From NCBI GenBank assembly GCA_026396515.1, contig JAPLWQ010000001.1:564-64563 (forward strand): a DNA stretch of 64,000 nucleotides. Reading direction: 5' to 3'. Positions 781 to 51,082 of this stretch are shown piece after piece. The position numbers were made by a program, and so were the translations under genes. This DNA comes from Candidatus Magasanikiibacteriota bacterium (GTDB lineage Bacteria > Patescibacteriota > Patescibacteriia > Magasanikbacterales > GWA2-37-8). A model generated the notes under the pieces. The model searched no databases. It worked only from the letters and a program-made list of their open reading frames with translations, and was not told the origin of the DNA. Within the stretch, counting starts at the first letter, position 1. Each line of letters opens with the position of its first letter.

Positions 781-2019
781 ATGAGCGAAAAAAAAGTGGG
801 CTTTGCCCGTGATGAAATCATCAGCTTGCTGGTGATGCTCCTCGCGCGCGTGCCACGGCCACCCAACGACGACGATGTGGAGCGACTACTCGGTTTGCTC
901 GAACTCGCCAGCAAGAAGTACGTGGCCCTCCTGTGTGAGGCCATCGGTCACGCACTTCCACAGGCGCGAATCGACAAGAACGATCCGGTTGGGGCGGTCA
1001 CACAGTTCATCACGATGAGTGTGCGTCTCGTGAAAGAAGATCAGGTCGCTTCGTACATTTCTTACATCCTCGAGATCGACAAGGGCTCGGACGAGTACAA
1101 ACCGCTGCAGGAAACAGTCACTCGGCAGATGGCCGGGTCGTCGCCGAAGATCAAGCGCGAACAAGCGCTCGGCGACGCGGAGAAGCAGCGACAGGAGCTG
1201 GACGCGCTGGTCAATAAGATCATGCAGGGCCAGCAGACCATCGAACAGAAGCGTACTGAGCTCGGCGATGTCTATCACCAGATCGAGCAGATGAAGCAGG
1301 ACGTCGACAGCGCAGAGCGCGATGCGATTGCGACCGAGATTCTCGCTCAAGGGAAGCTCGAGGTGGCCACTGCGCGGACCCATCAGGCCGAGGCGAGATT
1401 GCAGGAAGCGGAAATGACCGAGGCAGCAGCCTTCCGCCAGCTGGAGTCGGCCGAGATGCGGATCGTGGCCGCGAATACGGCTGCGGAAAGCGGTCGCATT
1501 CGCGACAACCGCCTGGTCAAACAGGCACTGTCCGAGGTCGGCGTCATCTTCCCTGACAACGAGGCGCTCGCGGCCATGGCCGACGAGGTCAACGAGAACA
1601 ACGCGGTGATCGTAGCGAGACAGCTGGTGAACCAACTGTTGCGCGACGTCATCACCCGTCTGACCCTCGAGACCCGCGATCTGGCCAGCGAACGCGAGGA
1701 TCTGGTCGCCCAGAGCAAGGAGCTCGAGAACCTGCGCGCCACGAAGGCCCGGGTGATGCAGGAGATCAGAGACATCGAGGCGGTGCTTGCCGAACTCTTC
1801 GCGGATCTCTCTTCCCGGCGATCCTCCCTCCAGCAGAAGGAGGACGAGAAGCTGGCTGTCGTGGCCGAGTGTGAGAAGGAGGCCTTCAACCTGCAGAAGG
1901 CGATCGCCGACGCCCAGGCCAGGATGGCCCAGGCTCGGGAGTCCCTGCGTACGACGCTCGAGCAGGAGATCTCTTCAGCGATGACCTCGCTGAAGCAGCA
2001 CGTGCCCGCTAAAGGTTAA
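781..2019 (+). CDS. hypothetical coiled-coil protein, GC-rich (compositionally foreign)
   Basis: ATG at 781 after an AT-rich region. 412 aa with A/E/Q/R/L-rich heptad-like repeats. GCC/CGC/GAG-type codons unlike the flanking genes. Long antisense ORFs typical of high-GC coding. Confidence 0.6.
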   Translation: MSEKKVGFARDEIISLLVMLLARVPRPPNDDDVERLLGLLELASKKYVALLCEAIGHALPQARIDKNDPVGAVTQFITMSVRLVKEDQVASYISYILEIDKGSDEYKPLQETVTRQMAGSSPKIKREQALGDAEKQRQELDALVNKIMQGQQTIEQKRTELGDVYHQIEQMKQDVDSAERDAIATEILAQGKLEVATARTHQAEARLQEAEMTEAAAFRQLESAEMRIVAANTAAESGRIRDNRLVKQALSEVGVIFPDNEALAAMADEVNENNAVIVARQLVNQLLRDVITRLTLETRDLASEREDLVAQSKELENLRATKARVMQEIRDIEAVLAELFADLSSRRSSLQQKEDEKLAVVAECEKEAFNLQKAIADAQARMAQARESLRTTLEQEISSAMTSLKQHVPAKG

Positions 2020-2045
2020 CCGCTTTTTTTCTTGACTTAGAAACC

Positions 2046-2090
2046 CACCCCCTGTACCGCTACTCGGTCCAGGGGGTTTTTATTTTTTTA
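2046..2090 (+). terminator. Rho-independent terminator after the GC-rich ORF
   Basis: cccccctg...cagggggtttttattttttt hairpin plus T-run just 3' of the stop at 2017-2019. Confidence 0.55.
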
Positions 2091-2091
2091 A

Positions 2092-2120
2092 TTGACATTT
2101 TCAGATAAATTGATAATATA
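2092..2120 (+). promoter_or_regulatory. sigma70-like promoter (TTGACA-16-TAATAT)
   Basis: Near-consensus -35/-10 about 30 nt upstream of ORF 2149. Confidence 0.4.
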
Positions 2121-2148
2121 GTGGCACTTGCTAATATAATAATTTTTC

Positions 2149-2658
2149 ATGAATTCAAAACAATTAAAACGGTTGTTTAACTTAATCCGTGAAACAGGTG
2201 ACAGGTTAATAATTGCCGACAATGAATCGGATGATGTTTTTGCCGTTATGTCTCTTCCCGAATATGAAAATTTGGCCCAATTAAGGAAAATGGATTGGAC
2301 TCCGGACGAAGTGCCGGCTCTTATTCCGCGCCAAATTGGCGATTTAAACGAACAGGAAATGTTGGAAAAGATAAACCACGACATTGCTGATTGGAGAGGT
2401 GTGCAAAAGAAAAATGAAGCAGAAATGGCAGTTGAAGACATGGTGGAAAGTAATATCGAAGCAGAGGATGCAGTTGAAGAAATAGCGCCTGATTCAGCCA
2501 AAAAAACAGCAATGCCTAGAATAGCCGACGTGCTAAATGACGAGGTATATCGTGAGCGAAAATTTGATGACAAACCAAGAGTCGGCTGGGTAGAAGAAGA
2601 GGATTTGTCTACTGTCCCGCATGAAGAGGAAAAGTTCTATTTGGAACCGGTTGAGTAA
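2149..2658 (+). CDS. hypothetical acidic protein (169 aa)
   Basis: ATG ORF with promoter upstream. Glu/Asp-rich C-terminal half. No recognisable motif. Confidence 0.5.
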   Translation: MNSKQLKRLFNLIRETGDRLIIADNESDDVFAVMSLPEYENLAQLRKMDWTPDEVPALIPRQIGDLNEQEMLEKINHDIADWRGVQKKNEAEMAVEDMVESNIEAEDAVEEIAPDSAKKTAMPRIADVLNDEVYRERKFDDKPRVGWVEEEDLSTVPHEEEKFYLEPVE

Positions 2659-2674
2659 TCCACAATCCACCCCC

Positions 2675-2702
2675 TTGCCAAATTCCTAAAATCTGCTATA
2701 AT
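2675..2702 (+). promoter_or_regulatory. sigma70-like promoter (TTGCCA-16-TATAAT) upstream of tuf
   Basis: cttgccaaattcctaaaatctgctataat. Followed by a ~145-nt leader before the tuf ATG. Confidence 0.45.
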
Positions 2703-2848
2703 CTTCTAATGTAAATTGGAGTAGACGGCTCTAAAGTTTTTAGTGCCGTATACTGAACAATAATATATTTACATATATATTTAGTGAAGCGGCTGGTCTA
2801 CAAATCTGCGCCGACCACTCGGCGGCAGTGCCGTGAATAATAAACCAT

Positions 2849-4039
2849 ATGGCTGAGTTTGTAAGAACCAAGCCACATGTCAACATTGGTACAATTGGCC
2901 ATGTTGACCACGGTAAGACAACTCTTACCGCTGCGATACTTGCTGTATTGAGCTCTCACGGAATGACTGCTCAAAGCAAAGGCGTTGATGATTTGGATAA
3001 AGCCCCGGAGTCAAAGGCCCGCGGCATTACCATTTCCACCGCCCATGTTGAGTATGAAACAGAAAAGCGCCATTACGCGCACGTAGACTGTCCGGGACAT
3101 GCCGATTATGTGAAGAACATGATTACCGGCGCAGCTCAGATGGACGGTGCTATCTTAGTGGTTTCCGCCGCTGACGGTCCGATGCCGCAGACCCGTGAGC
3201 ACATTGTGCTTGCCCGTCAAGTAGGCGTGCCGTACATTGTTGTGTTTTTGAACAAGGTTGATCAGGTTTCCGACCCGGAATTGATTGACTTGGTTGAAGC
3301 GGAAATTCGAGATTTGCTCAAGAAATATGATTTCCCTGGCGATACAACTCCGATTATCCGCGGCAGCGCCCTGCAAGCTTTGCAGAATCCGACTGATGAA
3401 GCTGCTTCAAAGCCGATTTTAGAATTGATGAAAATCGTTGATGAATATATTCCTGAACCGGTTCGAGCCGTTGACCAGCCGTTTCTTATGCCTGTGGAGG
3501 ATGTTTTCTCCATTGAAGGCAGGGGTACTGTGGTGACCGGACGTATCGATCGTGGCATGGTTCACGTCAATGATGAAGTTGATATTGTCGGTTTGAAAGA
3601 AGAGAAAATGAAAACCGTGGTGACCGGTATTGAAATGTTTAACAAGAGTTTGAAAGAAGGCCGAGCCGGTGATAATGCAGGCATCTTGCTTCGCGGTACC
3701 AAAAAGGAAGAAGTGGAGCGTGGTATGGTATTAGCCAAACCGGGTTCTATCAATCCGCATACCGAATTTGAAGCCCAGGTGGTTGTGCTCACCAAAGAAG
3801 AAGGCGGCCGACACAAACCGTTTTTCAAGGGTTACAAACCGCAGTTTTACATCAGAACTACTGATGTAACCGGCGAAGTGATCCTGCCGGAAGGCACAGA
3901 AATGGTTATGCCGGGCGATACAATTAGTTTCTCGGTGAAATTAATCAAGCCGGTGGCCATTGAAGAAAAAATGAAATTCGCCATCCGCGAAGGCGGTAAA
4001 ACCGTCGGCGCTGGCGTGGTAACAAAAATTAATAAATAA
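2849..4039 (+). CDS. tuf: elongation factor Tu
   Basis: [22 protein letters not shown] GTPase motifs. 396 aa. Confidence 0.97.
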
Positions 4040-4098
4040 GTCCTGACAAGGGGGGTGAAATTTTCACCCCCCTTTGTCGTGGAATAACGTTCTTTACC

Positions 4099-4464
4099 AT
4101 GACTTCAGCAACAGCGACAACTAAAGCTCCGGCACCGGCGGCAGTCAAGAAAGCGGTTGAGGCAACCAGAATCCGCATTAAAATTCGCGCCTATGACAAT
4201 AAGATTATTGATCAGGCGACGCGAGTAATTATTGATACTGCGGTACGAAATGATGCCAAAGTAATCGGACCGGTACCGCTTCCGACGGAAAAAAGCAAAT
4301 TTACAGTTAATCGTTCAACTTTTGTGCATAAAAATGCGCGCGAGCAATTTGAAATGCGCGTGCACAAGCGGTTGATTGACATTATGAACGCTTCGCCAAA
4401 GTGCGTAGATGCTCTTATGAGTTTGAGCCTGCCATCCGGCGTGGATGTTGAGATTAAGATGTAA
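4099..4464 (+). CDS. rpsJ: 30S ribosomal protein S10 (with N-terminal Ala/Thr-rich extension)
   Basis: [17 protein letters not shown]...PLPTEK S10 core. Sits between tuf and L3. Confidence 0.9.
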
Positions 4465-6611: not shown

Positions 6612-7451
6612 ATGCCAATTAGAATTTACAAACCAACTTCACCGGGGCGCCGCCATTCAAGCGTTGACGCTTTTTCAGATATTACAAAATCCGAACCGGA
6701 AAAATCTTTAGTGACGATTTTGCAGCCAAAATCAGGCCGCAATAATCAGGGTGTTATTACCGTACGCCATAAATCCGGCGGAGCAAAAAAATTATATCGC
6801 TTGGTTGATTTTAAGCTTCAAAAATATAATGTTGAAGCAGTGGTTTTGGCGATTGAATACGATCCGAACCGCGGTCCGAGAATTGCGCTGATTCAATATA
6901 GCGATGGCGTGAAATCATACATTCTCTGCCCTGAAGGTTTGAAGGTGGGCGATAAGGTTATTTCTTCCGACCACGCCATTGAAGCAAAAGCCGGGATGAG
7001 AATGTCGCTTGAACACATGCCAATCGGCTTGTTTATACATAATATTGAATTGACGGCCGGAAAAGGCGGGCAGTTGGTGCGCGGAGCAGGTCTTAGCGCT
7101 CAATTGGTCGGTTTTGAAGGTGAATGTGCACAGATAAAATTACCGTCAGGTGAGATTCGCTCGGTACGCAAGCAGTGCGCCGCTTCAATTGGCGCGCTCG
7201 GCAATGCCGATCGCCGTTTAATTCGCTGGGGCAAGGCCGGACGAATGCGCCACCGCGGCATTAAACCGACGGTAAAAGGTAAGAATATGAATCCGGTGGA
7301 TCACCCGCATGGAGGTGGTGAGGGGCATTCTCCAATCGGTCAGAAAAGGGGTCCCCAGACCGTTTATGGTAAAACAGCGCAGGGCGTGCGCACCCGCGGG
7401 AGAAAGAAATGGAGCAATAAATTTATTATTAAATCGCGCCGCAATAAATAA
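6612..7451 (+). CDS. rplB: 50S ribosomal protein L2
   Basis: NPVDHPHGGGEG L2 signature. Confidence 0.95.
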   Translation: MPIRIYKPTSPGRRHSSVDAFSDITKSEPEKSLVTILQPKSGRNNQGVITVRHKSGGAKKLYRLVDFKLQKYNVEAVVLAIEYDPNRGPRIALIQYSDGVKSYILCPEGLKVGDKVISSDHAIEAKAGMRMSLEHMPIGLFIHNIELTAGKGGQLVRGAGLSAQLVGFEGECAQIKLPSGEIRSVRKQCAASIGALGNADRRLIRWGKAGRMRHRGIKPTVKGKNMNPVDHPHGGGEGHSPIGQKRGPQTVYGKTAQGVRTRGRKKWSNKFIIKSRRNK

Positions 7452-16882: not shown

Positions 16883-17251
16883 ATGAACATATTAGCCATA
16901 GATTACGGAACAAAAAATATCGGTTTGGCCTGGTGCAATACCGGTATTGGAGTTGCACTGCCTTTTGGCGCGGCAAAAAATATCGGTGAAATAATAAAAA
17001 TAGTTAGCGATGAAAAAATTGATAAAGTTATTATCGGACTGCCGGTCGGGATCAACGGCAAGGAAAATATGAATACCGAGCGAGTTAGAAAATTCGGTAA
17101 TGATATTAAGCTGGCAACCGAAGTAGAAGTTGAATTTTCTGATGAAAGATTTAGCTCGCAAGCGGCTGACAGAATGGGAGCCGGCGTGAGCCGGGATGAA
17201 AAATCGGCCTTGATTATATTGGATGACTGGTTAAATGCAGCCAAAAAATAA
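16883..17251 (+). CDS. ruvX: putative pre-16S rRNA nuclease / Holliday junction resolvase-like YqgF
   Basis: MNILAIDYGTKNIGLA YqgF N-terminus. The ORF-track start at 16742 is a 47-codon 5' extension through a GC-rich spacer. Confidence 0.8.
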   Translation: MNILAIDYGTKNIGLAWCNTGIGVALPFGAAKNIGEIIKIVSDEKIDKVIIGLPVGINGKENMNTERVRKFGNDIKLATEVEVEFSDERFSSQAADRMGAGVSRDEKSALIILDDWLNAAKK

Positions 17252-17972
17252 TATGCAGGCAATTGTGCTAAAACGGGCAGGTTTTAGGGAATCAGATCAG
17301 ATTGTCACCCTTTTAACATTAGAAAAAGGCAAAGTTACGGCGCTTGCCCGCGGAGTGAAGAAGATTGCCAGCAAGAATTCGGCTTACTTAGAGCCGTTTT
17401 TTTTGATTGAGGCGGAATTGATACCGGGAAAAAATATTAATCACATTACAAAAGTTGTCGGTTTGAACAGTTTTAAAAATATCAGATCTGATTTACAAAA
17501 ATGTATTTTAGCTCAAAAGGCCGTTTCTATGGTAGATAAGTTAATTGAGGAAAATGAACGTGATGCGCCGGTATTCTCATTGCTGCTAAACTGGCTTGAG
17601 ACAGTGAACGAGAAAGATTATGGACGAGGATATTTTTTTGGTTTTGTCGCCAAGTTATTCAAAATTCTTGGATTTTCGCCGGTTCTTGATAAATGCATTG
17701 CATGCGGCAAGATAGTGCCAAAAGAGCAAAAAAATTCGTTCTATGTTTTTTCACCAAAAGATGGCGGTTTAAAATGTGCTGTTTGCAGGCAAAAAAATGA
17801 TGAGGCCTCAGCGGTAAAGTTTAGCATGCCGGATAGGGAGGTTTGGCTAATGTTTCTTAGTAATATTCCTGATCAATGGCCGGGGAAAATATCGCGCGCT
17901 ATGGAATCATCAATCTGGTCTTTTGCTGAATATCATATTGGGAAAAAACTTGCTAAAATTAGCGAAATTTGA
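17235..17972 (+). CDS. recO: DNA repair protein RecO
   Basis: OB-fold N-terminus plus CIACG...CAVC zinc motif. Start may be at 17253. Confidence 0.8.
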
Positions 17973-19326: not shown

Positions 19327-19372
19327 TTCCGCCATTAGTCGGCGGGATTTTTTTGTTAAAAAAAGGCCGCGC
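19327..19372. terminator. pair of bidirectional terminator hairpins between asnS and ORF 19420
   Basis: ccgcc..ggcgggattttttt and ggccgcgct..agcgcgacc. Confidence 0.5.
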
Positions 19373-19419
19373 TAGGTGAGCGCGACCGTGAGAAAAGATC
19401 GTAGTTGGTCATTGAATTT

Positions 19420-20055
19420 CTAAACGAGGCTACTCTTGCGGAAAGGGGGGATGCCTAATTCGTTGCGGCGGCGCCTGACCAGGCGTACCGGCACGTTGGC
19501 GGCGCTTGCAATTGCGGTGTCCGGCAGTTGGCCGAAAAATGGTTCAAGCTTATCTACCTCGCTCGGTTTTTCCGGATGCTGATATTCGATGCCGATTTTC
19601 TTGAAGGCGGCGCCGATACTGCCGAAATGGAAAACGGCCGAGTAGAAGATGGCGCCATGCTCTCTCCGCAGTTCCTCTTTGGTCAGGCTGGGAGAGACAT
19701 CCTGTAACTGTTCAAGCGTTTGCGTGGAACAGTAAAAGTGGTAGCTGATGCGGCCGCCAGATGCGGTTAAGGCCGTGAGTTCAGGCTGAAAACGGTAATT
19801 GCAGACCGGGCACTTTGTGGTGTAATCGAACGGATCGCTCGTGAAGCCCTTGATGATTTCCGCCGGCGTGAGCCGATGCTCGCACCGCGGGCAGACTCCG
19901 TTTGGGTGGTAGTCGCCACCGGTGAGTTGACGGAGCATTTGCTGTTGCCTTCCGATCATGATCTCGAGACAGGCAAGGCTTTGAACCATGGTCAGCCGCT
20001 GTTCCAAGCGCTGTGTCAGTCCCTGCCTCAAACTTGGTCCGAGTCTCATCTCCAT
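19420..20055 (-). CDS. hypothetical protein with Q/L-rich N-terminus (sigma-54 region-I-like) and CxxC...CxxC zinc ribbon, moderately GC-rich
   Basis: ATG at 20055 preceded by gagaaaggaaataca. CPRCEH...CPVCNY. The ORF-track start at 20130 is a 5' extension. Confidence 0.5.
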   Translation of the reverse strand: MEMRLGPSLRQGLTQRLEQRLTMVQSLACLEIMIGRQQQMLRQLTGGDYHPNGVCPRCEHRLTPAEIIKGFTSDPFDYTTKCPVCNYRFQPELTALTASGGRISYHFYCSTQTLEQLQDVSPSLTKEELRREHGAIFYSAVFHFGSIGAAFKKIGIEYQHPEKPSEVDKLEPFFGQLPDTAIASAANVPVRLVRRRRNELGIPPFRKSSLV

Positions 20056-20153
20056 TGTATTTCCTTTCTCGTTTTCCGCACTAATTGCGGTTGGTTTGTA
20101 ATGAACGTACTTGATAGAAAATCTTAGCAAATTATAGGTGTATTGTCAACACC

Positions 20154-21119: not shown

Positions 21120-21170
21120 AGTGACGATATTTTACTACAGGCAGGCCATTATTTCAATATAAAATGAAAA

Positions 21171-21205
21171 GCCGGCGAACTGAACGCTCGCCGGCCTGAA
21201 TGTGC
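21171..21205 (-). terminator. Rho-independent terminator 3' of the GC-rich ORF 21238..21543
   Basis: gccggcga...tcgccggc with a T-run on the minus strand. Confidence 0.5.
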
Positions 21206-21237
21206 GGGTATATTTTTTTATCAAGGTGCGGCGGGCG

Positions 21238-21543: not shown

Positions 21544-21603
21544 TTTGCCGCACCTCCTTTGTTTGTTCGTTTTTTACAGGAACACACTGTGAGTGGCTAC
21601 TTG

Positions 21604-29220: not shown

Positions 29221-29294
29221 GCACGATTCCACGGCAGCCTCATAGATTAAATTCAATAATTTTTTTTACTGTGCGGATCCGGTTGTGTAGGTAT

Positions 29295-33710: not shown

Positions 33711-33782
33711 GACCTCGTCGTTCAATGGATAGGACACTAGCCTGCGAAGCTGGAGATCAAGGTTCGACTCCTTGCGGGGTCA
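33711..33782 (+). tRNA. tRNA-Arg (anticodon read as GCG; verify)
   Basis: Manual cloverleaf: acceptor GACCTCG/CGGGGTC, D GTTC/GGAC, anticodon stem CTAGC/GCTGG with loop CTGCGAA, T-arm CAAGG-TTCGACT-CCTTG. No encoded CCA. Confidence 0.7.
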
Positions 33783-33784
33783 CA

Positions 33785-33816: not shown

Positions 33817-34002
33817 CCTCAGATTTTTGCTTATTTTAGCTAAAAAATAGGGCATTTTTTATAAGTTTATGTTTGAAGTATTGTTATTGACAAAAATACC
33901 ACTTTATGCTATTTTTCTCTATTCCTCAAGTATGTTGCTTGAGGGTAATAAAAATTGCGTTTTTTCACAATTTACCAACAATTCACCAAAGGAGGTGAAA
34001 GG

Positions 34003-34551
34003 ATGACCGTATTTATCTGCATCATGGTGGTCGGCTTCGTTGTGCTCGGAGCTTCGCTGCTTTTTGGCGAGATATTCGAGCACGGAGGCGACATCGCTCA
34101 TGACATCGCTGTCGAGCACGACGTGCTCGGTCAGGGCGGTGACGTGGAGCATTCTCAGGGCGGGCCGAGCTTCCTCAGCTTGCGCATGCTCGCCAGTTTC
34201 GCCACCGGTTTCGGAGGCGGCGGAGCGATCGGGCGCTACCTCGACTTCGGCTATGTGGCGAGTTCGCTTTTCGGGCTCGCTTTGGCCGTGGCGGTGGCAG
34301 CGGTCGTCTACTTCATCGTCGCGTTCCTCTACAAACAGCAGGCGACGAGCGGGGTTACCACAAGCGAATGTCTGAACAAGCAGGCGATCGTCTGTGTTGC
34401 GATTCCGGATAACGGGATGGGCCAGGTGACGCTCACACTCAAGGGCGCGACCCTGACCAAGATGGCCAAGTCGGAGGACGGCAAATCGCGTGAAAACGGT
34501 GCGACGGTTCTGATCAAGCAGATCGTCGGCGATTACATCATCGTCGGCTGA
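34003..34551 (+). CDS. NfeD-like (YuaF-type) membrane protein, flotillin operon partner; GC-rich
   Basis: aaaggaggtgaaagg SD then ATG at 34003. Two N-terminal TM helices plus a C-terminal OB-fold-like soluble domain. Immediately upstream of the flotillin gene, as in the Bacillus yuaF-floT operon. Confidence 0.7.
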   Translation: MTVFICIMVVGFVVLGASLLFGEIFEHGGDIAHDIAVEHDVLGQGGDVEHSQGGPSFLSLRMLASFATGFGGGGAIGRYLDFGYVASSLFGLALAVAVAAVVYFIVAFLYKQQATSGVTTSECLNKQAIVCVAIPDNGMGQVTLTLKGATLTKMAKSEDGKSRENGATVLIKQIVGDYIIVG

Positions 34552-34593
34552 AAACGGACTAACGGTCCAAAACAAAGAAAAAGGAGAAAACAG

Positions 34594-36420
34594 ATGAAAA
34601 CACTGTCCGGTTTCGCCGCCATGTTTGCAGCCATGTTCTTCGCGGGCAACTTGCTCGCGGCCGAAGGCGGGAACGCCGCGGCCGGCAACTTGCCCTTCGA
34701 TCTCGGGGGGCTCTTCATTCCGGTCATCGTCGTGGTCTGCGTGCTCGCTATCCTCATCGCCCTCTCGCTCTTCCTGCGGAATTACATCAAGGTTCCGCCG
34801 AACCAGGTGGCGGTCATCTCTGGACGGAAACACAGGCTCGACACCGGCGAGGCAATCGGGTTCAGACTCGTCCGCGGCGGCGCCACCTTCAAGTGGCCAT
34901 TGCTCGAACGGGTCGACTATCTCGATCTCGGAGTGCTGAGCATCCCGGTGCAGATCAAGAAGGCAATCACCAAAGAAGGTGTGCCGCTCAACGTGGCCGC
35001 CATTGCCAACGTCAAGTTCGGTAGCGACGATGTGTCGCTGCGCAACGGCGCTGAGCGGTTCCTGGGTATGAGCCCGGGAGCGATGCGGGAAATCATTCTC
35101 AATACGCTCGAGGGGCATTTGCGTTCGATCTGCTGCACCCTGAAGGTGGAGGAGATCAACAGTGATCGCCAGAAGTTCGCCCAACAGATGGTGAGCGAAG
35201 CGGCGGTCGACTTGGGGCGTTTGGGCTTCGTAATTGATGCCCTGGTCGTCCAGCACATCGAGGACGAGCAGCAATACCTCAACTCCCTCGGCCTCAAGCG
35301 TACGGCCGAGGTCAAACGTGACGCGAAGATCGGCGAAGCCGAAGCGACGCGCGACGCGGACATCAGGACGGCGGAAGCGACGCGCACCGCAACGATTGAA
35401 TCGACCAACGCCCAGCGCGAAGGCGCGGTGGCCAAGAACGAAAACCTGGCCAAGATCGCCGCGGCCGAGCGCGACCTCAAGACGAAGGAGGCGGGATTCG
35501 CCGCCGAAGTCGCTCAAGCCGAAGCCACGCGCGACCAAGCCGGTCCCAAGGCCAAGGCCTTGGCCGAGAAGGATGTGCTCGTCGCCCAGGTCGCGGCCCA
35601 AGAGGCCAAGGCCTTGGCGGAAATCTCTCTCCAGCAGAAGCTGGCCGAGCGCAAGAAGGCCGAGCTCAACGCCACGGTGATCCAGGGTGCTGAAGCCGAA
35701 AAGCAGAAGCAGGTCATCGAGGCGGAAGCCGCGGCCGCGGCCGCGGTGAAGCGGGCAGAAGGCGCGCGCGACGCCGCGGTCAGGACGGCCGAGGGTCAGC
35801 GCGATGTCGCCATCCGCGAAGGCGAAGGCGAGGCCTCCAAGACCAAGGCGGTTGGCCTGGCAGAAGCTGATGCCAACAAGGCAAAGTTGCTCGCCCAGGC
35901 AGAAGGCGAGGCCGCCAAGGTCCGCCAGATGGGTCTGGCCGAGGGCGAGGCCATCCAGGCCAAGCTGCTGGCCGAGGCCGCCGGCGTGCTCAAGAAGGCC
36001 GAGGCCTATCAGAAGCTCGACGAGGCAGGCAAGTTCATGTTCATCCTCGAGAAGGCCCCGCAGATCATCGAGGCGCTCGGCGACGCTGCCTCCAAGGCCC
36101 TTACCCCGGCGTTCGATGCCGTTGGGCGCGGGCTGGCCAACGTGGACAACATCACCATCGTCGACACCGGGTCGGGGGATGGCAAATCGGCGGTCGGGCG
36201 CTTCGCCAATACCGCCCCCACGATTTTCTTCGAGTTCATGCAGAAGGCGAAGGCCCTGGGGATCGACCCGACCGATCTGCTCAAGAAGGTCGGTGTCAAG
36301 GTGATCCCCGGTTCGGCAGCGTTCGGCGCTCTCGACACCGGAGGACAGGACGAGGCGGCATCACCCGCCGCAGACGCCGCCGCCGGCAAGCCGCCGGCTG
36401 ACGCGCCGGCCAAGAAGTAG
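34594..36420 (+). CDS. floT: flotillin (FloT/YuaG-type SPFH/Band-7 protein); GC-rich
   Basis: aaaaaggagaaaacag SD. N-terminal TM. SPFH domain with the LEGHLRSI motif. Long EA-repeat coiled coil. C-terminal ITIVDTGSGDG. Collinear with B. subtilis FloT. Confidence 0.88.
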   Translation: MKTLSGFAAMFAAMFFAGNLLAAEGGNAAAGNLPFDLGGLFIPVIVVVCVLAILIALSLFLRNYIKVPPNQVAVISGRKHRLDTGEAIGFRLVRGGATFKWPLLERVDYLDLGVLSIPVQIKKAITKEGVPLNVAAIANVKFGSDDVSLRNGAERFLGMSPGAMREIILNTLEGHLRSICCTLKVEEINSDRQKFAQQMVSEAAVDLGRLGFVIDALVVQHIEDEQQYLNSLGLKRTAEVKRDAKIGEAEATRDADIRTAEATRTATIESTNAQREGAVAKNENLAKIAAAERDLKTKEAGFAAEVAQAEATRDQAGPKAKALAEKDVLVAQVAAQEAKALAEISLQQKLAERKKAELNATVIQGAEAEKQKQVIEAEAAAAAAVKRAEGARDAAVRTAEGQRDVAIREGEGEASKTKAVGLAEADANKAKLLAQAEGEAAKVRQMGLAEGEAIQAKLLAEAAGVLKKAEAYQKLDEAGKFMFILEKAPQIIEALGDAASKALTPAFDAVGRGLANVDNITIVDTGSGDGKSAVGRFANTAPTIFFEFMQKAKALGIDPTDLLKKVGVKVIPGSAAFGALDTGGQDEAASPAADAAAGKPPADAPAKK

Positions 36421-36432
36421 AGCTGGCGCGCC

Positions 36433-36894
36433 ATGGCGAACGATTTCACGTACGAGAGTAAGATCCCATGGAAAGCGGAGCGGAAGGCCAACACATTGGT
36501 CATCCACTGCAGCGCTTTTGACCTCAGACCGTACTTCGCCGATTTCGCGGCGAACGGCCTGAAGCTCGCGGAATATGACCTGGTGGCTGTCCCCGGCGGC
36601 GTTCAGATGCTGACGGTGGCCCATTACATCGCGAAGGTGCGCGTACTCATGCGCAAGTGGCTGGGCTTCCTGGTCGAGCATCATAACCTGACCAAGGTGG
36701 TGATCATCGGCCACGACGACTGCTCCTGGTATAAGGACTTTCGTTTCGGTCCGATCCATATCGATCTGAAGCAGCGGCAGATAGCTGACCTCAAAGAAGT
36801 TGCCGCTATCTTGCGCGAGGAGATGAAGGTCGGCGTGGACATCTACTTCGCCCACATCAAAGACAACAAGGTTTCTTTCACTCGGGTCAGCTGA
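36433..36894 (+). CDS. hypothetical protein with beta-carbonic-anhydrase-like Cys/Asp-Arg/His-x-x-Cys motifs; GC-rich
   Basis: LVIHCSAFDLR and VVIIGHDDCSW parallel the CxDxR and HxxC zinc-ligand motifs of beta-class carbonic anhydrases. Third gene of the island. Confidence 0.45.
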   Translation: MANDFTYESKIPWKAERKANTLVIHCSAFDLRPYFADFAANGLKLAEYDLVAVPGGVQMLTVAHYIAKVRVLMRKWLGFLVEHHNLTKVVIIGHDDCSWYKDFRFGPIHIDLKQRQIADLKEVAAILREEMKVGVDIYFAHIKDNKVSFTRVS

Positions 36895-37027
36895 CAACTG
36901 GCCGAAGTTCTTTCCAAATACATCTCGCCGATCGGTTAGTCACCGATCGGCAAATTCAATAAAACATCATTATCAATGGTGTTTTTTTGATATATTTTTC
37001 CTTTGGCTTTTTGTTGTTTATGCTATA

Positions 37028-39139
37028 ATGATACAAACAAGAACTATGGATTTTTCTACACCAATAATAAAACTTAATCGCGTCGGAGCAACACTTGCCC
37101 GGCGTTTTGGGCGTTTAGGCGTGAAAACCGCCGGTGATTTGTTAAACTGGTTTCCTTTCCGATACGAAGATTATCGCCGCATCATACCTATCGGGAAAAT
37201 AGTTGAGGGAGAAGCCATTACCGTTTGCGGTCGGTTGGAACTTATCGCCAACAGGCGCAGTTTTCGCAGCAGAAAAATAATTACTACTGCCATGGTTTCC
37301 GATGAAAGCGGCAGTGTGCGCGTGGTTTGGTTTAATCAGCCGTATATCACTAAAAATTTGAAGCCGGGCGACATGATTTTTTTATCCGGCAAGGTTAAGG
37401 CGGATATGCTTGGCCCGCAGTTTGTCAGCCCGATGTACGAAAGAATGAATAACGCAGAGACAACGCATACGGCGCGGATGGTACCGATATATCCCTTAAC
37501 CGACGGCATTACTCAAAAGCAAATACGTTTCTTGATGTCCCAAGTAATGCCCCTGGCGCAATCTGCCGATGATTGGCTGCCTGATGAGATTTTGGAGCGG
37601 TTTGACCTTGCTCCGCTTAAGGATGCCTTGCAGGGAATTCATTTACCAAAAGATGAAATTGATTTAAAACAATGCACCGACCGGTTAAAATTCAATGAAT
37701 TATTCGTTCTTCAATTTAAAGCCGAATTAGCGCGCCGGGAAATGAGCTCAACCAAGGCCCCGGCCATGGAATTTAAGGAGGACGCTATCAAAAAATTCGT
37801 TGCCGGTTTGCCGTTTAAACTGACCAAGGGGCAGAAAGTAGCGGCTTGGGAAATTTTGAAAGATCTGCAAAATAATGCGCCGATGAATCGCTTGTTGTCG
37901 GGCGACGTTGGCTCCGGGAAAACGGTTATCGCGGCAATCGCCATATTAAATACGGTTTTAAATGGTTATCAGGCGATACTGATGGCGCCGACAGAAATTT
38001 TGGCGCGGCAGCACTTTGAATCATTTAAGAAATTATTTGGCGGGAAAATACAAATTGGGCTTCAGACCAGGTCACAGATATTTGTCGGAGAAGAAGAATT
38101 AACAAAGAAAAAAATGGCTCAATTTATCAGTCGGGGGGAAGTAAAAATAATTATCGGAACGCACGCCTTGCTTTCAGAGAAAATATTATTTAGCGATGTA
38201 GGCTTAATAGTTGTGGATGAACAGCATCGTTTTGGCGTGGCCCAAAGAAAAGCGATTAAAGATAAAACCGACGACGTGTCTGCCCATTATTTAAGCATGA
38301 CCGCCACACCGATTCCCCGGTCGCTCGCTTTAATGATTTACGGAGATTTGGATTTATCGGCGATAAATGAAATGCCGGCGGGACGCAAGCCGATTATTAC
38401 CAGATTGGTTGAGCCGAAAAATAGGGAAAAGGCGTATGAATTTATTTGTGGTCAGGTGAAGCAGGGGAGGCAAATATTTGTAATTTGTCCGCTGATAGAA
38501 CAGGCGCCAACTGAAGATTTTATACCGATAAATTATGATTTTACTTGGGCGGGTCAAAGCGACAAAAAAACCGTCATGAATGAATTCACGAAGTTATCTG
38601 AAGAAATTTTTCCAGATTTTTTGGTGGGATATTTGCACGGCAAACTTAAGCCCGCGGAAAAAGAGGCGACAATGAAAAAATTTCAAAATAATGAAATAAA
38701 TATTCTTGTTTCTACTTCTGTTGTGGAAGTTGGAATCGATATCCCCAACGCGTCTGTGATGATGATTGAAGGAGCGGACCGTTTCGGTTTGGCACAGCTT
38801 CATCAGTTTCGCGGACGCGTCGGCCGGTCGGTTTATCAATCATATTGTTTTTTATTTACCGGTTCTGAATCGGAAAAAGTTAAAGATCGGCTGACTTTTT
38901 TTGAACAAAATCTAAATGGTTTTAATTTGGCGGAAAAGGATCTGGAAACGCGTGGCCCCGGAGAAGTATATGGAACCGCCCAAAGCGGGCTCGCTAACTT
39001 AAGGTTGGCTAAGCTAACGGATAAAGAGGTAATTGTGAAGACAAGAAGCGCGGCTGTATTCGTGGCTCAAAATCTAAAAAAATTCCCTAAAATTAGGCAT
39101 TTCATTGCCAAATGGGAGAAGGGCGTGCATTTAGAGTAA
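37028..39139 (+). CDS. recG: ATP-dependent DNA helicase RecG
   Basis: Wedge/OB N-terminus, DEAD-box helicase motifs (GDVGSGKT, DEQH), C-terminal domain. The first ATG overlaps a TATAAT box, so an alternative start at 37046 is possible. Confidence 0.9.
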   Translation: MIQTRTMDFSTPIIKLNRVGATLARRFGRLGVKTAGDLLNWFPFRYEDYRRIIPIGKIVEGEAITVCGRLELIANRRSFRSRKIITTAMVSDESGSVRVVWFNQPYITKNLKPGDMIFLSGKVKADMLGPQFVSPMYERMNNAETTHTARMVPIYPLTDGITQKQIRFLMSQVMPLAQSADDWLPDEILERFDLAPLKDALQGIHLPKDEIDLKQCTDRLKFNELFVLQFKAELARREMSSTKAPAMEFKEDAIKKFVAGLPFKLTKGQKVAAWEILKDLQNNAPMNRLLSGDVGSGKTVIAAIAILNTVLNGYQAILMAPTEILARQHFESFKKLFGGKIQIGLQTRSQIFVGEEELTKKKMAQFISRGEVKIIIGTHALLSEKILFSDVGLIVVDEQHRFGVAQRKAIKDKTDDVSAHYLSMTATPIPRSLALMIYGDLDLSAINEMPAGRKPIITRLVEPKNREKAYEFICGQVKQGRQIFVICPLIEQAPTEDFIPINYDFTWAGQSDKKTVMNEFTKLSEEIFPDFLVGYLHGKLKPAEKEATMKKFQNNEINILVSTSVVEVGIDIPNASVMMIEGADRFGLAQLHQFRGRVGRSVYQSYCFLFTGSESEKVKDRLTFFEQNLNGFNLAEKDLETRGPGEVYGTAQSGLANLRLAKLTDKEVIVKTRSAAVFVAQNLKKFPKIRHFIAKWEKGVHLE

Positions 39140-39247
39140 AAAAGTATTGACTTTTTGGCTGAGTCATGCTATTCTCTCGTCATGTTTTTACCGTCTGTGC
39201 GGATGTTCCGCGCCGGTAGAACAGGGCTTTCATCAAGGAGAAGAGGC

Positions 39248-39652
39248 ATGAAAAACAGATTGGAAGAGGGAACGGCCAAGGGCTCCAAAGAGGGGGACAA
39301 GGATTTCGTCAAGGTATTCGTACAGCGGGCGGGGAAGACCGGTTTCGAACCGTTTTTCTCGCGTCGTACGCCGCTGCGTCTCAACGGCCACACGGTGACG
39401 GTGTTCGGTAGGACCGAGCGGGGCGCGTCCGACAGGAACGTGGAGGCCTGCGAGGTCATTTTCCGGAAGATCGATGATCTGGAGCAGATTTACGACTGCG
39501 ACGCCAGCATCACCTGTTCGCGGATGAGGGTGCAGGAGAAGGTTCCTGACATCGGGCGCGTACGCCGCCATATCGCGACGAAGATCTCCGAGCACCCCTG
39601 CATCAAGGTCGACGAGAAGAAGTTCATCGAGGTCTTGAGCCACCGCGTTTAG
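39248..39652 (+). CDS. hypothetical protein (134 aa), GC-rich singleton
   Basis: aaggagaagagg SD plus ATG at 39248. High GC relative to recG and radA. The ORF-track start at 39155 is TTG. Confidence 0.5.
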   Translation: MKNRLEEGTAKGSKEGDKDFVKVFVQRAGKTGFEPFFSRRTPLRLNGHTVTVFGRTERGASDRNVEACEVIFRKIDDLEQIYDCDASITCSRMRVQEKVPDIGRVRRHIATKISEHPCIKVDEKKFIEVLSHRV

Positions 39653-39682
39653 CGCTGCCAACATGCTTATTCTTCTTTGATT

Positions 39683-39722
39683 GAAAAAGCCGCCAAGGAT
39701 TTATTCCAAGGCGGCTTTATTT
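39683..39722. terminator. bidirectional terminator between ORF 39248 and radA
   Basis: aaaaagccgccaagg...ccaaggcggctttattttttt. Confidence 0.6.
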
Positions 39723-39737
39723 TTTTACTCTGATAGT

Positions 39738-41093
39738 TTAAGTGTGCTTAATAATTTCCTGAATATTTTTTATATCCACTATTTTAAGTATTTTCATTGT
39801 TAAACCGGCGCTCTTTTTTCCTAAATTGGTCAGGGCGCGCTTTAGCCCAAGCTGTTCGCATTCTTTAAGGCGTTTTTCAGTAAATGAAACAGGCCGTACT
39901 TCGCCCGATAATCCGATTTCTCCGAAAGCGGCCATATCAGAACCAAGCGGCTTATCTTTATACGCGCTGGCTATGGCTAGTGCCGCGGCGAGGTCAGCTG
40001 CCGGTTCATCGGCGGAAAGACCGCCAACCACATTTAAGTGAATATCATATTGGCTGAGTGTTAATCCGGCACGGCGTTCAAGCACGGCTACTAGCATGTG
40101 CAGGCGATTGAGGTCAAAGCCGCTTGATTTGCGCACCGGATAGCCAAAAGATGTTTTACTCACCAGTGCCTGCACTTCGCAGAGGATGGGGCGCGATCCT
40201 TCCATTAAACAAGCTACTACATTGCCTGGAGCGTTTTCCGCCCGTTCACCCAAAAAAGCGGCTGATGGATTTTTTACTTCCTGTAAGCCGTTTTCCTCCA
40301 TGGAAAAAACTCCGACTTCATCGGTTGAACCAAAACGGTTTTTGGCGGCGCGTAGTATTCTGAATTGATGAAAGCGGTCGCCCTCTAAATATAAGACAGT
40401 ATCAACCAAATGCTCTAAAGTTTTTGGTCCGGCGACAGTTCCTTCCTTGGTCACTTGCCCGATGAGTACAACTGTTAAGCGCTCGCTTTTCGCCAGATCC
40501 ATCAGTTTCACTGTGCAGGCGCGCACTTGCGCCAGATTTCCGGCTTCACCTATGGAGTCGGCAGAATAAACTGTTTGAATCGAATCGACAATCGTCAGAG
40601 CAGGCCGCTCTTTTTTTATGGTTGCGATAATTATATCAATATTTGATTCATTGCCGATTTTAAGTTTCTGCGCTTTAATGCTTAGTCTGTCGGCGCGCAA
40701 CTTGGTTTGTTCAGCCGATTCTTCGCCGGAGAGATAAAGGGCGGTTGGTAAAAAAGAAGCGAGTTGTAACGCCAGCGTTGATTTGCCGATACCCGGTTCA
40801 CCACCAAGTAAAATTAAACTTCCCGGTACAAGCCCGCCGCCAAGCACGCGGTCCAGTTCTCCGATATTCGTTTTCACCCGTGCGAAATCTTCGCTTTTAA
40901 TATCTGAAAGTGTGGAAATTTTCGCCGGCGCAAGTTCTTGAGCATCATCATTTTTTACAGACACCGTTGTCGGATTTTTATCAATCGTGCCCCATTGTCC
41001 GCATTCTAAACAGCGCCCAACCCATTTTTGGAATTGCGCGCCGCAGTGAGAGCAGGAATAAACAATATTTTGTCTGATATTTATTGAGCGCAT
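39738..41093 (-). CDS. radA: DNA repair protein RadA (Sms)
   Basis: N-terminal C4 zinc ribbon. RecA-like GGEPGIGKST Walker A. Lon-like C-terminus. Confidence 0.93.
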   Translation of the reverse strand: MRSINIRQNIVYSCSHCGAQFQKWVGRCLECGQWGTIDKNPTTVSVKNDDAQELAPAKISTLSDIKSEDFARVKTNIGELDRVLGGGLVPGSLILLGGEPGIGKSTLALQLASFLPTALYLSGEESAEQTKLRADRLSIKAQKLKIGNESNIDIIIATIKKERPALTIVDSIQTVYSADSIGEAGNLAQVRACTVKLMDLAKSERLTVVLIGQVTKEGTVAGPKTLEHLVDTVLYLEGDRFHQFRILRAAKNRFGSTDEVGVFSMEENGLQEVKNPSAAFLGERAENAPGNVVACLMEGSRPILCEVQALVSKTSFGYPVRKSSGFDLNRLHMLVAVLERRAGLTLSQYDIHLNVVGGLSADEPAADLAAALAIASAYKDKPLGSDMAAFGEIGLSGEVRPVSFTEKRLKECEQLGLKRALTNLGKKSAGLTMKILKIVDIKNIQEIIKHT

Positions 41094-49380: not shown

Positions 49381-49384
49381 TATT

Positions 49385-49726
49385 ATGTCCGTAAAACAAC
49401 ACAGCCGCGGAGGAAATGTCGACCGTTCATGGCAAAAGCGCCGGGCCGATGCCTTTGGGAAAGTCAGTGATGGGTTGGTGGATGTGGCTAATGCCAAAAA
49501 ACAAAAAATTTCTGACCGGCTCAAAGCCACCGGTCTGAAAGAGAAAAAAGTATATAAGGCAAAATTGGGCGATGATATGCGCGCATTCGAATATGCCGTA
49601 ACGAAAATCGACCGGCTGGAAGGCGATGTTTGGCTCAAGTCCGAACGCGGAAAAGTACGCAAAGCAAGGGTGTTTGACGCGATTTTCGGGCCGGTCGAGC
49701 GGCCGAAACACAAAGGAAAAAAGTAA
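49385..49726 (+). CDS. hypothetical small basic protein
   Basis: ORF with a downstream terminator. Start uncertain (track 49361). About 50% GC. Confidence 0.4.
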   Translation: MSVKQHSRGGNVDRSWQKRRADAFGKVSDGLVDVANAKKQKISDRLKATGLKEKKVYKAKLGDDMRAFEYAVTKIDRLEGDVWLKSERGKVRKARVFDAIFGPVERPKHKGKK

Positions 49727-49744
49727 GATAAAAGTATTAAACAA

Positions 49745-49770
49745 GCGGGCCACCACGGCCCGCTTTTTTA
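49745..49770 (+). terminator. Rho-independent terminator
   Basis: gcgggccaccacggcccgctttttt. Confidence 0.6.
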
Positions 49771-49792
49771 TTGATTCCGCCCTTCGGCGGGA

Positions 49793-49821
49793 TTGACAGT
49801 TGCACACTTTTGTGCTACAAT
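49793..49821 (+). promoter_or_regulatory. consensus sigma70 promoter TTGACA-17-TACAAT
   Basis: Perfect -35, 17-nt spacer. Followed by an aaaggagg SD and ATG at 49861. Confidence 0.55.
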
Positions 49822-49860
49822 TCTGCTTTCCGTCCACAATGACGCAAAGGAGGCAATTGC

Positions 49861-50112
49861 ATGGGGAGCAGACAAGAAGAGGCAAAGCGGGAGGAATCGG
49901 TCTATGTTCCAAGGTTTGACGGTTTAGCCGGCGAGAGAAACGCGAAAAGCGGAAGCAGGCGCAATGTTCACGTTCGCGCCACGTCGGAAGAGCAGTCCCA
50001 AATGGCTGAAGAGCGCCGGTATCGGCGCGCACTCGAAGACCCGCCGGAACTGCGGGGAGAGGAGAGGCGCATTGTTGACCAGTTATCCCGGTTGACACGG
50101 CGCGGAAGGTAA
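49861..50112 (+). CDS. hypothetical small highly charged protein (83 aa), GC-rich singleton
   Basis: Strong promoter plus SD. Arg/Glu-rich. Terminator follows. Confidence 0.5.
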   Translation: MGSRQEEAKREESVYVPRFDGLAGERNAKSGSRRNVHVRATSEEQSQMAEERRYRRALEDPPELRGEERRIVDQLSRLTRRGR

Positions 50113-50147
50113 ATGTCCAAGAAGAATTAGCTCATTCGTAGCTTAAA

Positions 50148-50179
50148 GAGCCACCCTCGGGTGGCTCATTGTTTTTTTA
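50148..50179. terminator. bidirectional terminator (gagccaccc tcg ggtggctc + T-run)
   Basis: Between ORF 49861 (+) and htpX (-). Confidence 0.6.
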
Positions 50180-51082
50180 GACGCCCATTGTTCGCAATTT
50201 TCGTATTCTTTCTTCAACCGGCGGGTGAGTGGAAAAAAGCGAAGCGAATTTTTTTCGCCCGCCTTTAAAGGGGTTGGAAATAAACATGTGAGCAGTGGCG
50301 GTAGATGCTTTTCGCATCGGCATATTTTCATTGGCAATTTTTTCCAGGGCGCTCGCCAAGCCGTCGGGATAGCGCGTTAAAAGCGCGCCCGAAGCGTCGG
50401 CCAGATATTCGCGCTTGCGGGAAATTGCCAATTTTATCAGTTCAGCAATAAATGGTGAAAGAATAGCCAATATGATGCCGACAATCATCAGAATAGCAAA
50501 AAGTTGTGAACCGCCTTCGCGATCATTGCTTTTTCCTCCGCGAAACAGTCCGCCGGAGCGGAGCATAAAATCGGCCATAATGGTAATGGCGCCCACCATT
50601 ACAGCCACCAGCATCATAAAACGGATGTCGTAATTTTTTATGTGTGACAGTTCGTGAGCGACTACGCCTTCCAGCTCTTCATTGGTAAGTTTTTCAATTG
50701 CCCCGCGGGTTACGGCAATGGAAGCGTTCTTCGGATTGCGCCCGGTGGCGAAAGCGTTGATTGCCGGATCCTCAATTAAATATATTTTTGGCATCGGCAC
50801 GCCGGCAGTAATACAGAGGTTTTCCACCAGGTGATAGATATATTTGTTTTCGTCGTGCGCGATCGGTTTGGCCCCGGAAACAGACAAAGCGATTTTGTCA
50901 CCGGAAAAATATGAGATGGCGGCCATGCCGAGCGAAAACAATATGGCGATAGTCAATCCGGTATAGGTTCTTCCTTCGCCGTACACTTGGTCAAAAATCC
51001 AGCCGAGCAAAATAATCATGGCGATAAAAATCATTGCCAGAAAAATTGATTTGCGCGTATTTGATGCAATTTCAGAGTACAT
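50177..51082 (-). CDS. htpX: zinc metalloprotease HtpX (M48)
   Basis: HELSH HExxH motif. Four TM helices. Paired with lemA. Confidence 0.9.
   Translation of the reverse strand: MYSEIASNTRKSIFLAMIFIAMIILLGWIFDQVYGEGRTYTGLTIAILFSLGMAAISYFSGDKIALSVSGAKPIAHDENKYIYHLVENLCITAGVPMPKIYLIEDPAINAFATGRNPKNASIAVTRGAIEKLTNEELEGVVAHELSHIKNYDIRFMMLVAVMVGAITIMADFMLRSGGLFRGGKSNDREGGSQLFAILMIVGIILAILSPFIAELIKLAISRKREYLADASGALLTRYPDGLASALEKIANENMPMRKASTATAHMFISNPFKGGRKKFASLFSTHPPVEERIRKLRTMGV

Follow-up and report, generated by a model that had tools for sequence, protein, structure and literature searches.

Phage morons (Juhala/Hendrix, 2000; reviewed by Cumby et al., 2012; PMC3594210) are defined as genes with their own promoter and terminator that lie between genes adjacent in relatives, deviate in GC content and spread by horizontal gene transfer (HGT). 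Units of comparable design are present in a stretch of 64,000 nucleotides from Candidatus Magasanikiibacteriota bacterium (assembly GCA_026396515.1, contig JAPLWQ010000001.1, positions 564 to 64,563), which we refer to as the window. Its genes, including the str/S10/spc ribosomal cluster, parAB, topA, dprA, recG and radA, identify it as a chromosomal contig, of 45.6% GC, from an organism of the candidate phyla radiation (CPR; Patescibacteria). The 412-residue product of open reading frame (ORF) 781–2019 is identical to the NCBI entry 'hypothetical protein NTW66_00015 [Candidatus Magasanikbacteria bacterium]'. On balance, we read the GC-rich ORFs of the window as autonomous transcription-unit cassettes that occupy fixed intergenic slots, belong to a flexible pool shared across the clade and are exchanged between lineages of Magasanikbacteria, and we hold this reading with moderate confidence. 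The unit structure, the reuse of slots and the persistent GC excess are new. We designate the units around ORFs 781–2019, 39248–39652 and 49861–50112 cassettes A, B and C; a three-gene flotillin operon and the units of ORFs 19420–20055 and 21238–21543 are called by name or by their first coordinate.

The likeness to phage morons is considerable. The cassettes have their own promoter and a factor-independent terminator (21238 depends on a tRNA-Leu promoter), they sit between genes that adjoin each other in relatives (the tRNA-Arg/recG site can be empty and the recG–radA gap as short as 7–140 bp), their GC content is unlike that of their neighbours (z scores of 3.7–9.7, with sharp borders) and they spread horizontally without a dedicated recombinase. 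In contrast to morons, they are chromosomal, lying amid EF-Tu, ribosomal proteins, recG, radA, parAB and topA, with no PHROGs or viral matches; their slots are reused across the clade with allelic series, and the deviation in GC is consistently upward and long-lasting. Since they lie on a bacterial chromosome without phage context, we do not count them as members of the moron class.

Flexible genomic islands of the 'additive' kind, adjacent to tRNA genes, and of the 'replacement' kind are known in marine and other bacteria from Rodriguez-Valera and colleagues. The slots described here share with them fixed positions and variable content, one slot by a tRNA gene stacking cassettes (in the relative L096) and others holding divergent alleles. 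The cassettes differ in size (0.4–3 kb, mostly one gene), in having neither an integrase nor att repeats and in encoding small cytoplasmic proteins, not surface-glycan clusters. The flotillin operon resembles a tRNA-linked genomic island in its location 3' of tRNA-Arg, its deviant composition and its absence from the nearest relatives, but it has no integrase, and a search for flanking direct repeats (att sites or a duplicated tRNA 3' end) found only repeats inside the coding region; the mobile segment is no more than the operon, its promoter and its terminators. Integron cassettes are likewise small modular units, usually of a single gene, several of which can be stacked at a site. They are, however, promoterless and carry attC beside intI, whereas the units here bring a promoter and terminator of their own. 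No attC-like repeat brackets the flotillin cassette, the sole unit searched for repeats; there is no integrase in the neighbourhood, and the slots showed no integrase-like ORF.

The compositional contrast was defined against 55 ordinary genes of the window, which have a GC content of 0.444 ± 0.030 (range 0.38–0.50) and a GC content at third codon positions (GC3) of 0.445 ± 0.039 (range 0.34–0.52), the z scores being taken against the latter. Eight genes lie beyond the core range, with GC3 of 0.59–0.82 and z of 3.7–9.7. They are four ORFs that an earlier note on this DNA had listed as compositionally foreign, the three genes of the flotillin operon, and 19420–20055 on the reverse strand (GC3 0.67, z 5.9), which was absent from that list. 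The most deviant, all on the forward strand, are the flotillin gene itself (34594–36420; GC3 0.82, z 9.7), 39248–39652 (GC 0.59, GC3 0.81, z 9.5), 781–2019 (GC 0.61, GC3 0.79, z 8.8) and the gene for a protein of 153 residues (36433–36894; GC3 0.78, z 8.6). The NfeD-like ORF, listed as 33955–34551 on the same strand and likely to start at the ATG at 34003, has a GC3 of 0.74 (no z score). ORFs 49861–50112 (forward; GC 0.59, GC3 0.62, z 4.5) and 21238–21543 (reverse; GC 0.57, GC3 0.59, z 3.7) are moderate rather than extreme outliers in GC3. The codon adaptation index (CAI), with EF-Tu and the ribosomal-protein genes as reference, places the outlier ORFs 3.5–5.4 standard deviations (SD) under the other core genes, and the four listed ORFs are confirmed as compositional outliers. 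The excess is limited to the coding sequence (CDS): intergenic DNA up- and downstream of the units has a GC content of 0.30–0.49, and no GC3 gradient is found at the ends of the adjoining genes. GC1 and GC2 are raised as well in most units.

Each ORF had also been described as bracketed by an AT-rich promoter-like sequence and its own hairpin terminator. The terminators hold for all units, each of which ends in a hairpin and T-run of −21 to −32 kcal/mol, and a Shine–Dalgarno sequence precedes every ORF; sigma-70-like promoters belong to all units except one. A consensus scan called TTGACA/TTGACT-17-TAnnnT promoters at 39248, 49861, the flotillin operon and 19420; the −10 element of 781 is weaker, and 21238 lacks a promoter of its own. 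Cassette A spans 681–2090 on the forward strand, with a promoter-like TTGACA at 681–686, a 17-nucleotide spacer and TAGGTT at 704–709, read by eye and not called by the scan, and a terminator at about 2047–2090. Also on the forward strand, the flotillin cassette (33878–37000) has the promoter TTGACA-17-TATTTT at 33887–33915, genes for an NfeD-like protein (34003–34551), the SPFH/flotillin protein (34594–36420) and the 153-residue protein (36433–36894), and two terminator hairpins at 36927–36990. Cassette B (39147–39727, forward) consists of the promoter TTGACT-17-TATTCT (39147–39175), a CDS of 134 residues (39248–39652) and a terminator at 39686–39727; cassette C (49793–50180, forward) has TTGACA-17-TACAAT at 49793–49821, a CDS of 83 residues (49861–50112) and a terminator at 50148–50179. 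On the reverse strand, the 19420 cassette (19355–20149) carries TTGACA-17-TAAGAT at 20149–20121, the CDS 19420–20055 and a terminator at about 19387–19355, and the 21238 unit (21160–21543) a CDS of 101 residues (21238–21543) and a terminator at about 21196–21160.

Evidence for movement comes from comparison with relatives. A scan anchored on RadA gave 71 loci, mostly from Magasanikbacteria, the closest being L003 (RadA 90%), which lies on the same contig as L002. One other lineage is represented by the Logan contigs L096/L097 and L098/L099, from runs SRR23086384 and SRR23086375. Its core genes are 63–81% identical to those of the window at the amino-acid level, with four-fold degenerate sites near random (0.27–0.52 identical). 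For the core genes flanking the cassettes the synonymous divergence (dS) runs from 1.9 to saturation, being 1.9–2.2 for the genes around cassette C against L098 and saturated for recG against L096. By comparison, the three flotillin-operon genes are 85–92% identical in amino-acid sequence to those of L096 (four-fold sites 0.76–0.86, dS 0.38–0.52) and the 49861 product is 90% identical to its homologue in L098 (four-fold sites 0.78, dS 0.32). L096 aligns with the window at 87.8% nucleotide identity over 33878–37000 and nowhere else; the flanks do not align, and the identity extends from a few nucleotides ahead of the −35 box to the T-run of the terminator. Cassette C is about 90% identical to L098 in nucleotide sequence from ATTGACA, at the −35 box, onwards, against 39–63% for the preceding gene and its terminator. 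Both ends of the exchanged DNA are thus defined for the flotillin cassette, and the left end for cassette C; on the right, cassette C directly adjoins the conserved end of the following gene, so that no boundary can be placed. Alignments to the exchanged copies revealed no sequence shared outside the unit at the left ends of either cassette or at the right end of the flotillin cassette. In L003 the flotillin site is empty and the cassette C allele is about 30% identical to that of the window. The history of the cassettes is therefore incongruent with that of the core, since near-identical cassettes are shared with a lineage whose core genes are no closer than those of L003. These alignments demonstrate exchange between lineages for the flotillin operon and cassette C, and what moves is the whole transcription unit. 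A polymorphism-based polarisation was tried and dropped, as there were no single-nucleotide polymorphisms: L096 equals L097, L098 equals L099, and L001/L100 equal the window.

A cassette comprises a promoter, a 5' leader, one to three genes and an intrinsic terminator, and it occupies one of a few slots between conserved core genes: from tRNA-Arg to recG, from recG to radA, the gap before an M48 peptidase gene, and the gap before a gene for 178 residues and EF-Tu. According to lineage, a slot is empty, contains unrelated cassettes or contains alleles of one small protein that have diverged strongly, and we propose that whole units are now and then replaced or added by horizontal exchange among Magasanikbacteria lineages. 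Cassettes could enter as imported DNA and be integrated by recombination proteins of the cell itself (DprA, RecO, RadA and RecG, all encoded in the window); ATTGACA, T-runs and similar short, generic sequences may serve as junctions. These four proteins form the set for DNA processing and recombination that the integration of imported DNA calls for, and so bear on exchange without an integrase. In the window dprA is at 28066–29256 (reverse), recO at 17235–17972 (forward), recG at 37028–39139 (forward) and radA at 39738–41093 (reverse).

The content of the slots varies across the clade. The tRNA-Arg/recG slot begins at tRNA-Arg(GCG) (33711–33783, forward, with its own terminator), 95 nucleotides upstream of the flotillin cassette. 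It is empty in L003 and L006 and has an ORF of 136–142 residues in L004 and L005, and none of the 71 RadA-anchored loci has a match to the flotillin genes. In L096 it contains the flotillin operon plus two further GC-rich cassettes, stacked between the flotillin unit and recG, with ORFs of 116 (GC3 0.85) and 138 residues (GC3 0.67). Homologues of the L004/L005 ORF lie directly upstream of recG in L096, L101 and L103. The recG–radA gap is either 7–140 bp long (13 relatives) or taken up by one small ORF, often unrelated and often GC-rich; L096 has there another, unrelated ORF of 83 residues with a GC3 of 0.87. Homologues of 39248 are found between recG and radA in L003 (38% identity), L004, L006, L007, L101 and L103, with a weak match in L005. 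Small-ORF homologues of 49861 lie at the position that it has in the window in L003, L004 and L006, at 28–33% identity, each copy with its own TTGACA promoter, AGGAGG and terminator; the L098 copy is positional as well. The family of 781 has two members among 5.8 billion proteins, the window copy and that of L002, which is also of 412 residues and stands at the same site, ahead of the 178-residue gene and EF-Tu. The two are 62–63% identical in amino-acid sequence, with a dN/dS of 0.22 and a dS of 1.18, the latter near that of the flanks. A check for co-occurrence proposed in the earlier note has thus been answered: 781, 39248 and 49861 recur at the same slots in related genomes.

Persistence of the GC excess is the second striking property of the units. 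The L002 copy of 781 has a GC3 of 0.68 against about 0.40 in its neighbours, and the 39248 homologues have values of 0.55–0.87 against roughly 0.3–0.6 in the core, L004 being the extreme case (0.66–0.68 against 0.30). GC3 of the cassettes is well above that of the host core in most lineages examined, the exception seen being L101. Positional homologues of three of the four listed ORFs are GC-rich even where the synonymous sites of their neighbours are saturated. To gauge compositional memory, 2817 four-fold sites of core genes were compared for strong/weak (G or C versus A or T) changes. Of an initial deviation, the fraction retained since the split is 0.45 on the L002/L003 branch, 0.35 for L006, 0.23 for L007 and 0.10 for L004, and the core GC3 of these lineages has drifted between about 0.30 and 0.55. 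The four-fold GC of cassette A, 0.82 in the window and 0.73 in L002, would need an ancestral value of 1.0 or more, and the requirement for cassette B is still less possible. A single, slowly ameliorating acquisition is therefore numerically impossible, as it demands an ancestral four-fold GC above 100%. Cassette composition is decoupled from chromosomal composition: either a GC-richer pool continually re-seeds the cassettes, or these genes are subject to some force that favours GC. A regional hotspot of gene conversion was rejected as the sole cause in view of the absence of a GC3 gradient in neighbouring gene ends. Translational selection for GC3 is unlikely, since the ribosomal-protein genes are not rich in GC3.

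A census of crude ORF calls in 63 RadA-anchored loci, comparing the GC content of each ORF with the median of the conserved ORFs of the same locus, gives the same direction. An excess above 0.08 was found in none of the 547 ORFs that occur in more than three other loci, in 8.2% of the 207 that occur in one to three others and in 21.5% of the 237 that occur in no other locus, 13.5% of these last exceeding 0.12. Only 4.2% of the lineage-specific ORFs lie 0.08 or more under the core. Accessory genes are usually AT-richer than the core, and the direction of the census is the reverse of this.

The earlier note had raised repeated acquisition from a high-GC donor. Independent and fairly recent imports from unrelated sources of this kind, for example Proteobacteria or Actinobacteria, with amelioration still incomplete, would agree with the strongly deviant GC3 and low CAI and with the position of the flotillin operon, beside tRNA-Arg and missing from the closest relatives; HGT and genomic islands are, moreover, documented in Patescibacteria (PMC12455944), and a genome of 45% GC receives, on average, surrounding DNA that is GC-richer. 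We nevertheless regard this origin as unlikely. The homologues of A, B and C occur solely at the same slots of Magasanikbacteria-like genomes, and no high-GC donor homologue or donor contig was found for these three. Copies past synonymous saturation are still GC-rich, with the impossible ancestral composition that the decay calculation requires, and the promoters, leaders and terminators look native and travel with the gene. Scans of viral contigs with flotillin and 781 found nothing, and a scan of genome contigs with the flotillin protein, aimed at possible donors, found no relative. A native origin seems to us distinctly improbable as well. On that account the genes are vertically inherited and fast-evolving, selection (for instance on the stability or structure of mRNA, on expression level or on stop-codon robustness) or GC-biased gene conversion at recombination-prone loci maintains their GC-rich codons, and mobility is incidental. 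Positional conservation across the clade, the equality of dS between cassette A and its flanks, and an excess that outlasts saturation and extends to GC1 and GC2 in most units all speak for it. Lassalle in 2015 and Raghavan in 2012 are said to have connected elevated bacterial GC3 with recombination or selection. The excess of +0.15 to +0.35 in GC3 is, however, far above reported effects of gene conversion, and the ends of the flanking genes show no gradient, although heteroduplex would reach them too. GC-ending codons are not those preferred in translation, judging by the ribosomal-protein genes, and the flanks of the flotillin operon and of cassette C are five times older than the cassettes themselves.

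That the GC-rich stretches are structured non-coding RNAs with spurious ORFs is very improbable. The idea draws on the usual GC-richness of such RNAs in AT-leaning genomes, on the promoters and terminators, on lengths of 250–1240 nucleotides, on the long ORFs present on both strands and on the fact that 21238 is unannotated in the NCBI record. The antisense ORFs sit in the codon-aligned frame (antisense GC1 equals sense GC3) and are an expected by-product of high GC3 in the sense frame. In the cassette regions Rfam gave nothing even at E values up to 1, three tRNAs being its sole matches, and a Shine–Dalgarno sequence and ATG precede every ORF. Codon periodicity is clear in 781, in 39248 and throughout the flotillin operon: GC3 is highest and GC2 lowest, an order that fails in 21238 and 49861. 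The cassette genes have dN/dS of 0.10–0.22, protein sequence is conserved with synonymous sites saturated, and family alignments show invariant residues; the products are real proteins under purifying selection. Scarcely credible is a chimeric assembly or binning artefact that joined a GC-rich contaminant to a CPR contig, a possibility that the earlier note had rightly discounted. Abrupt changes of composition in a metagenome-assembled genome (MAG) would be its signature. Instead, the transitions fall exactly at promoters and terminators, homologous cassettes fill the same slots in several genomes, and contigs that Logan built from run SRR20698648, which may or may not underlie the deposited MAG, match the window with 100% identity across the 781, 19420 and 21238 junctions.

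Several points weigh against our reading of the units as an exchanged, clade-wide pool. Exchange is demonstrated for two cassettes and one lineage pair only, and L096–L099 are short metagenome contigs, each from a single run. The dS of cassette A, equal to that of its flanks, agrees with simple vertical inheritance after the separation from L002. Nor is the excess universal, as cassette B of L101 does not stand out from its core in GC. Much of the excess of 21238 is due to the amino-acid composition typical of its family, and no positional homologue was available for comparison. In the census, spurious antisense calls inflate the lineage-specific GC-rich class, as GC-rich DNA readily makes long ORFs. 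An external donor may lie behind the flotillin operon, and the recombination mechanism is one that we infer.

Provided that the units do form an exchanged pool, a wider proposal is possible, which we advance tentatively: Magasanikbacteria, perhaps with other CPR bacteria, might keep a clade-wide pool of 'chromosomal morons' that are swapped, gained or lost at fixed slots without a dedicated recombinase, with junctions at generic sequences of promoters and terminators, and the pool might have a GC-rich set-point of its own, held by a GC-favouring process. CPR genomes are tiny and their gene trade is little known. The present case, with whole transcription units moving at fixed slots and no mobile-element machinery found, offers a concrete and testable picture of the CPR flexible genome. 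Small, fast-evolving and horizontally traded proteins are candidates for roles in interaction with hosts or phages. Accessory genes that remain GC-rich past saturation bear on the question of what holds bacterial GC content against AT-biased mutation. Were the effect general, composition-based island finders and amelioration clocks would misdate events in these lineages.

The earlier note had considered that the ORFs might be functionally related cargo and had seen no recognisable domain in them. The first idea finds no support: proteins of different cassettes are unrelated to one another, and reading six upstream regions made no shared regulatory motif evident beyond a generic sigma-70 promoter, no motif search having been run. 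The second stands as far as Pfam, NCBIfam, PHROGs and PADLOC are concerned, none of which gave a domain in the four listed ORFs; no phage or defence family matched any cassette protein. It falls short in that 21238 belongs to a widespread family, and 39248 and 49861 to small conserved ones. Structure prediction, another check then suggested, gave confident AlphaFold models for 21238 (pLDDT 93) and 39248 (pLDDT 84) and no convincing structural neighbour that would indicate a function; matches of 21238 to SH3-like barrels are weak.

In Bacillus subtilis, yuaF-floT is an NfeD–flotillin (SPFH) operon. The flotillin cassette is predicted to be an NfeD/SPFH membrane-scaffold operon of comparable order: a gene for a putative NfeD-like membrane protein precedes that for a Band_7/SPFH protein, whose coiled-coil tail is rich in Ala and Glu. 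It differs in scoring far below the FloT cut-off, in its extra gene for 153 residues and in its setting, a mobile cassette of a CPR bacterium. The SPFH protein matches Band_7 (PF01145) with an E value of 4.5e-23 and 82.6 bits (cut-off 23.6), and reaches 196 bits against the FloT equivalog NF058507 (cut-off 700), which makes it a distant flotillin-like protein and not a FloT equivalog. The NfeD label derives from a weak precomputed match to PF25842 (NfeD_TM) on the 85%-identical L096 protein, the window protein having no Pfam match, and the 153-residue protein has a sub-threshold match to Pro_CA_2.

The product of 781 is a coiled-coil protein with weak similarity to SMC. In its 5' leader (window 740–780; L002 9960–10000) the stretch AACAAAGCAAGAAAAACTTGCGGAAAGG is identical in both copies, despite a dS of about 1.2 in the gene, and may be a regulatory element. 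The 39248 family is small, with about ten representatives, and has invariant D19, G29, F53-G54-R55, D62, D77, H116-P117 and F126. The 49861 product is rich in Arg and Glu, with a Y-x-P-R...G motif and a C-terminal L-x-x-E-E motif; Y15, P17, R18, G21, R33, R39, L64, E67 and E68 are invariant in its small conserved group. Between the upstream terminator and the −35 box of cassette C (window 49727–49792) the window has an extra hairpin of 18 nucleotides, TTCCGCCCTTCGGCGGGA, with ATTGA on both sides, that L098 does not have. This hairpin appears to be a small insertion or duplication exactly at the left junction of the cassette.

The 19420 product has 211 residues, two CxxC pairs and an Arg-rich C-terminus, with weak hints of a zinc ribbon in Pfam and one distant homologue, P0004, that is 37% identical. 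ORF 21238 begins 59 nucleotides past the 3' end of tRNA-Leu(CAA) (21603–21685, reverse; promoter TTGACA-17-TACAAT at 21727–21699), with which it is probably co-transcribed from the tRNA promoter. The statement that two inserts adjoin tRNA 3' ends is upheld by ARAGORN, the flotillin operon doing so at tRNA-Arg(GCG) and 21238 at tRNA-Leu(CAA). The latter tRNA scores 51.7 bits in Rfam (gathering score 29); it reached the threshold in E-value mode and is missing from the gathering-mode list, a quirk of the tool. The 21238 family consists of widespread, uncharacterised small proteins and accounts for most of 462 representative-cluster matches; its typical amino-acid composition explains part of the GC excess of the ORF. 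A tblastn search with 21238 against phages and plasmids and a scan of viral contigs with its family found nothing. The match to P0017, a tick protein of 2189 residues with 16 matched stretches, was rejected as spurious, this being a repetitive eukaryotic protein with unrelated Pfam domains. ParA beside tRNA-Leu is kept in the distant relative L015, with other genes downstream. A member of the family lies about 120 nucleotides downstream of tRNA-Tyr in L092 (5799–6258), comparable to the tRNA-Leu arrangement at 21543–21685 of the window, and in L078/L079 tRNA-Gln is convergent with a gene of the family, which may be loosely associated with tRNAs.

The family of 136–148 residues that lies upstream of recG in L004, L005, L096, L101 and L103 is not present in the window; its N-terminal consensus is roughly IP.LP...L...F.RIRP.MRF. 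In L096 the ORFs noted around recG, namely the stacked ORFs and the recG–radA ORF, are at 3475–3825, 4039–4455 and 6791–7042. A gap of 650 nucleotides without a credible gene separates a RelA/SpoT-like gene from topA (25053–25699). Its GC-rich core, at about 25240–25500, was considered on the reverse strand as an RNase P RNA from resemblance by eye and was rejected, with no Rfam match at E values up to 10 and a fold z-score of −1.4. The gap has a promoter-like TTGACA-17-TATAGT on the forward strand near 25047 and several terminator-like hairpins; its ORF 25162–25491 looks spurious.

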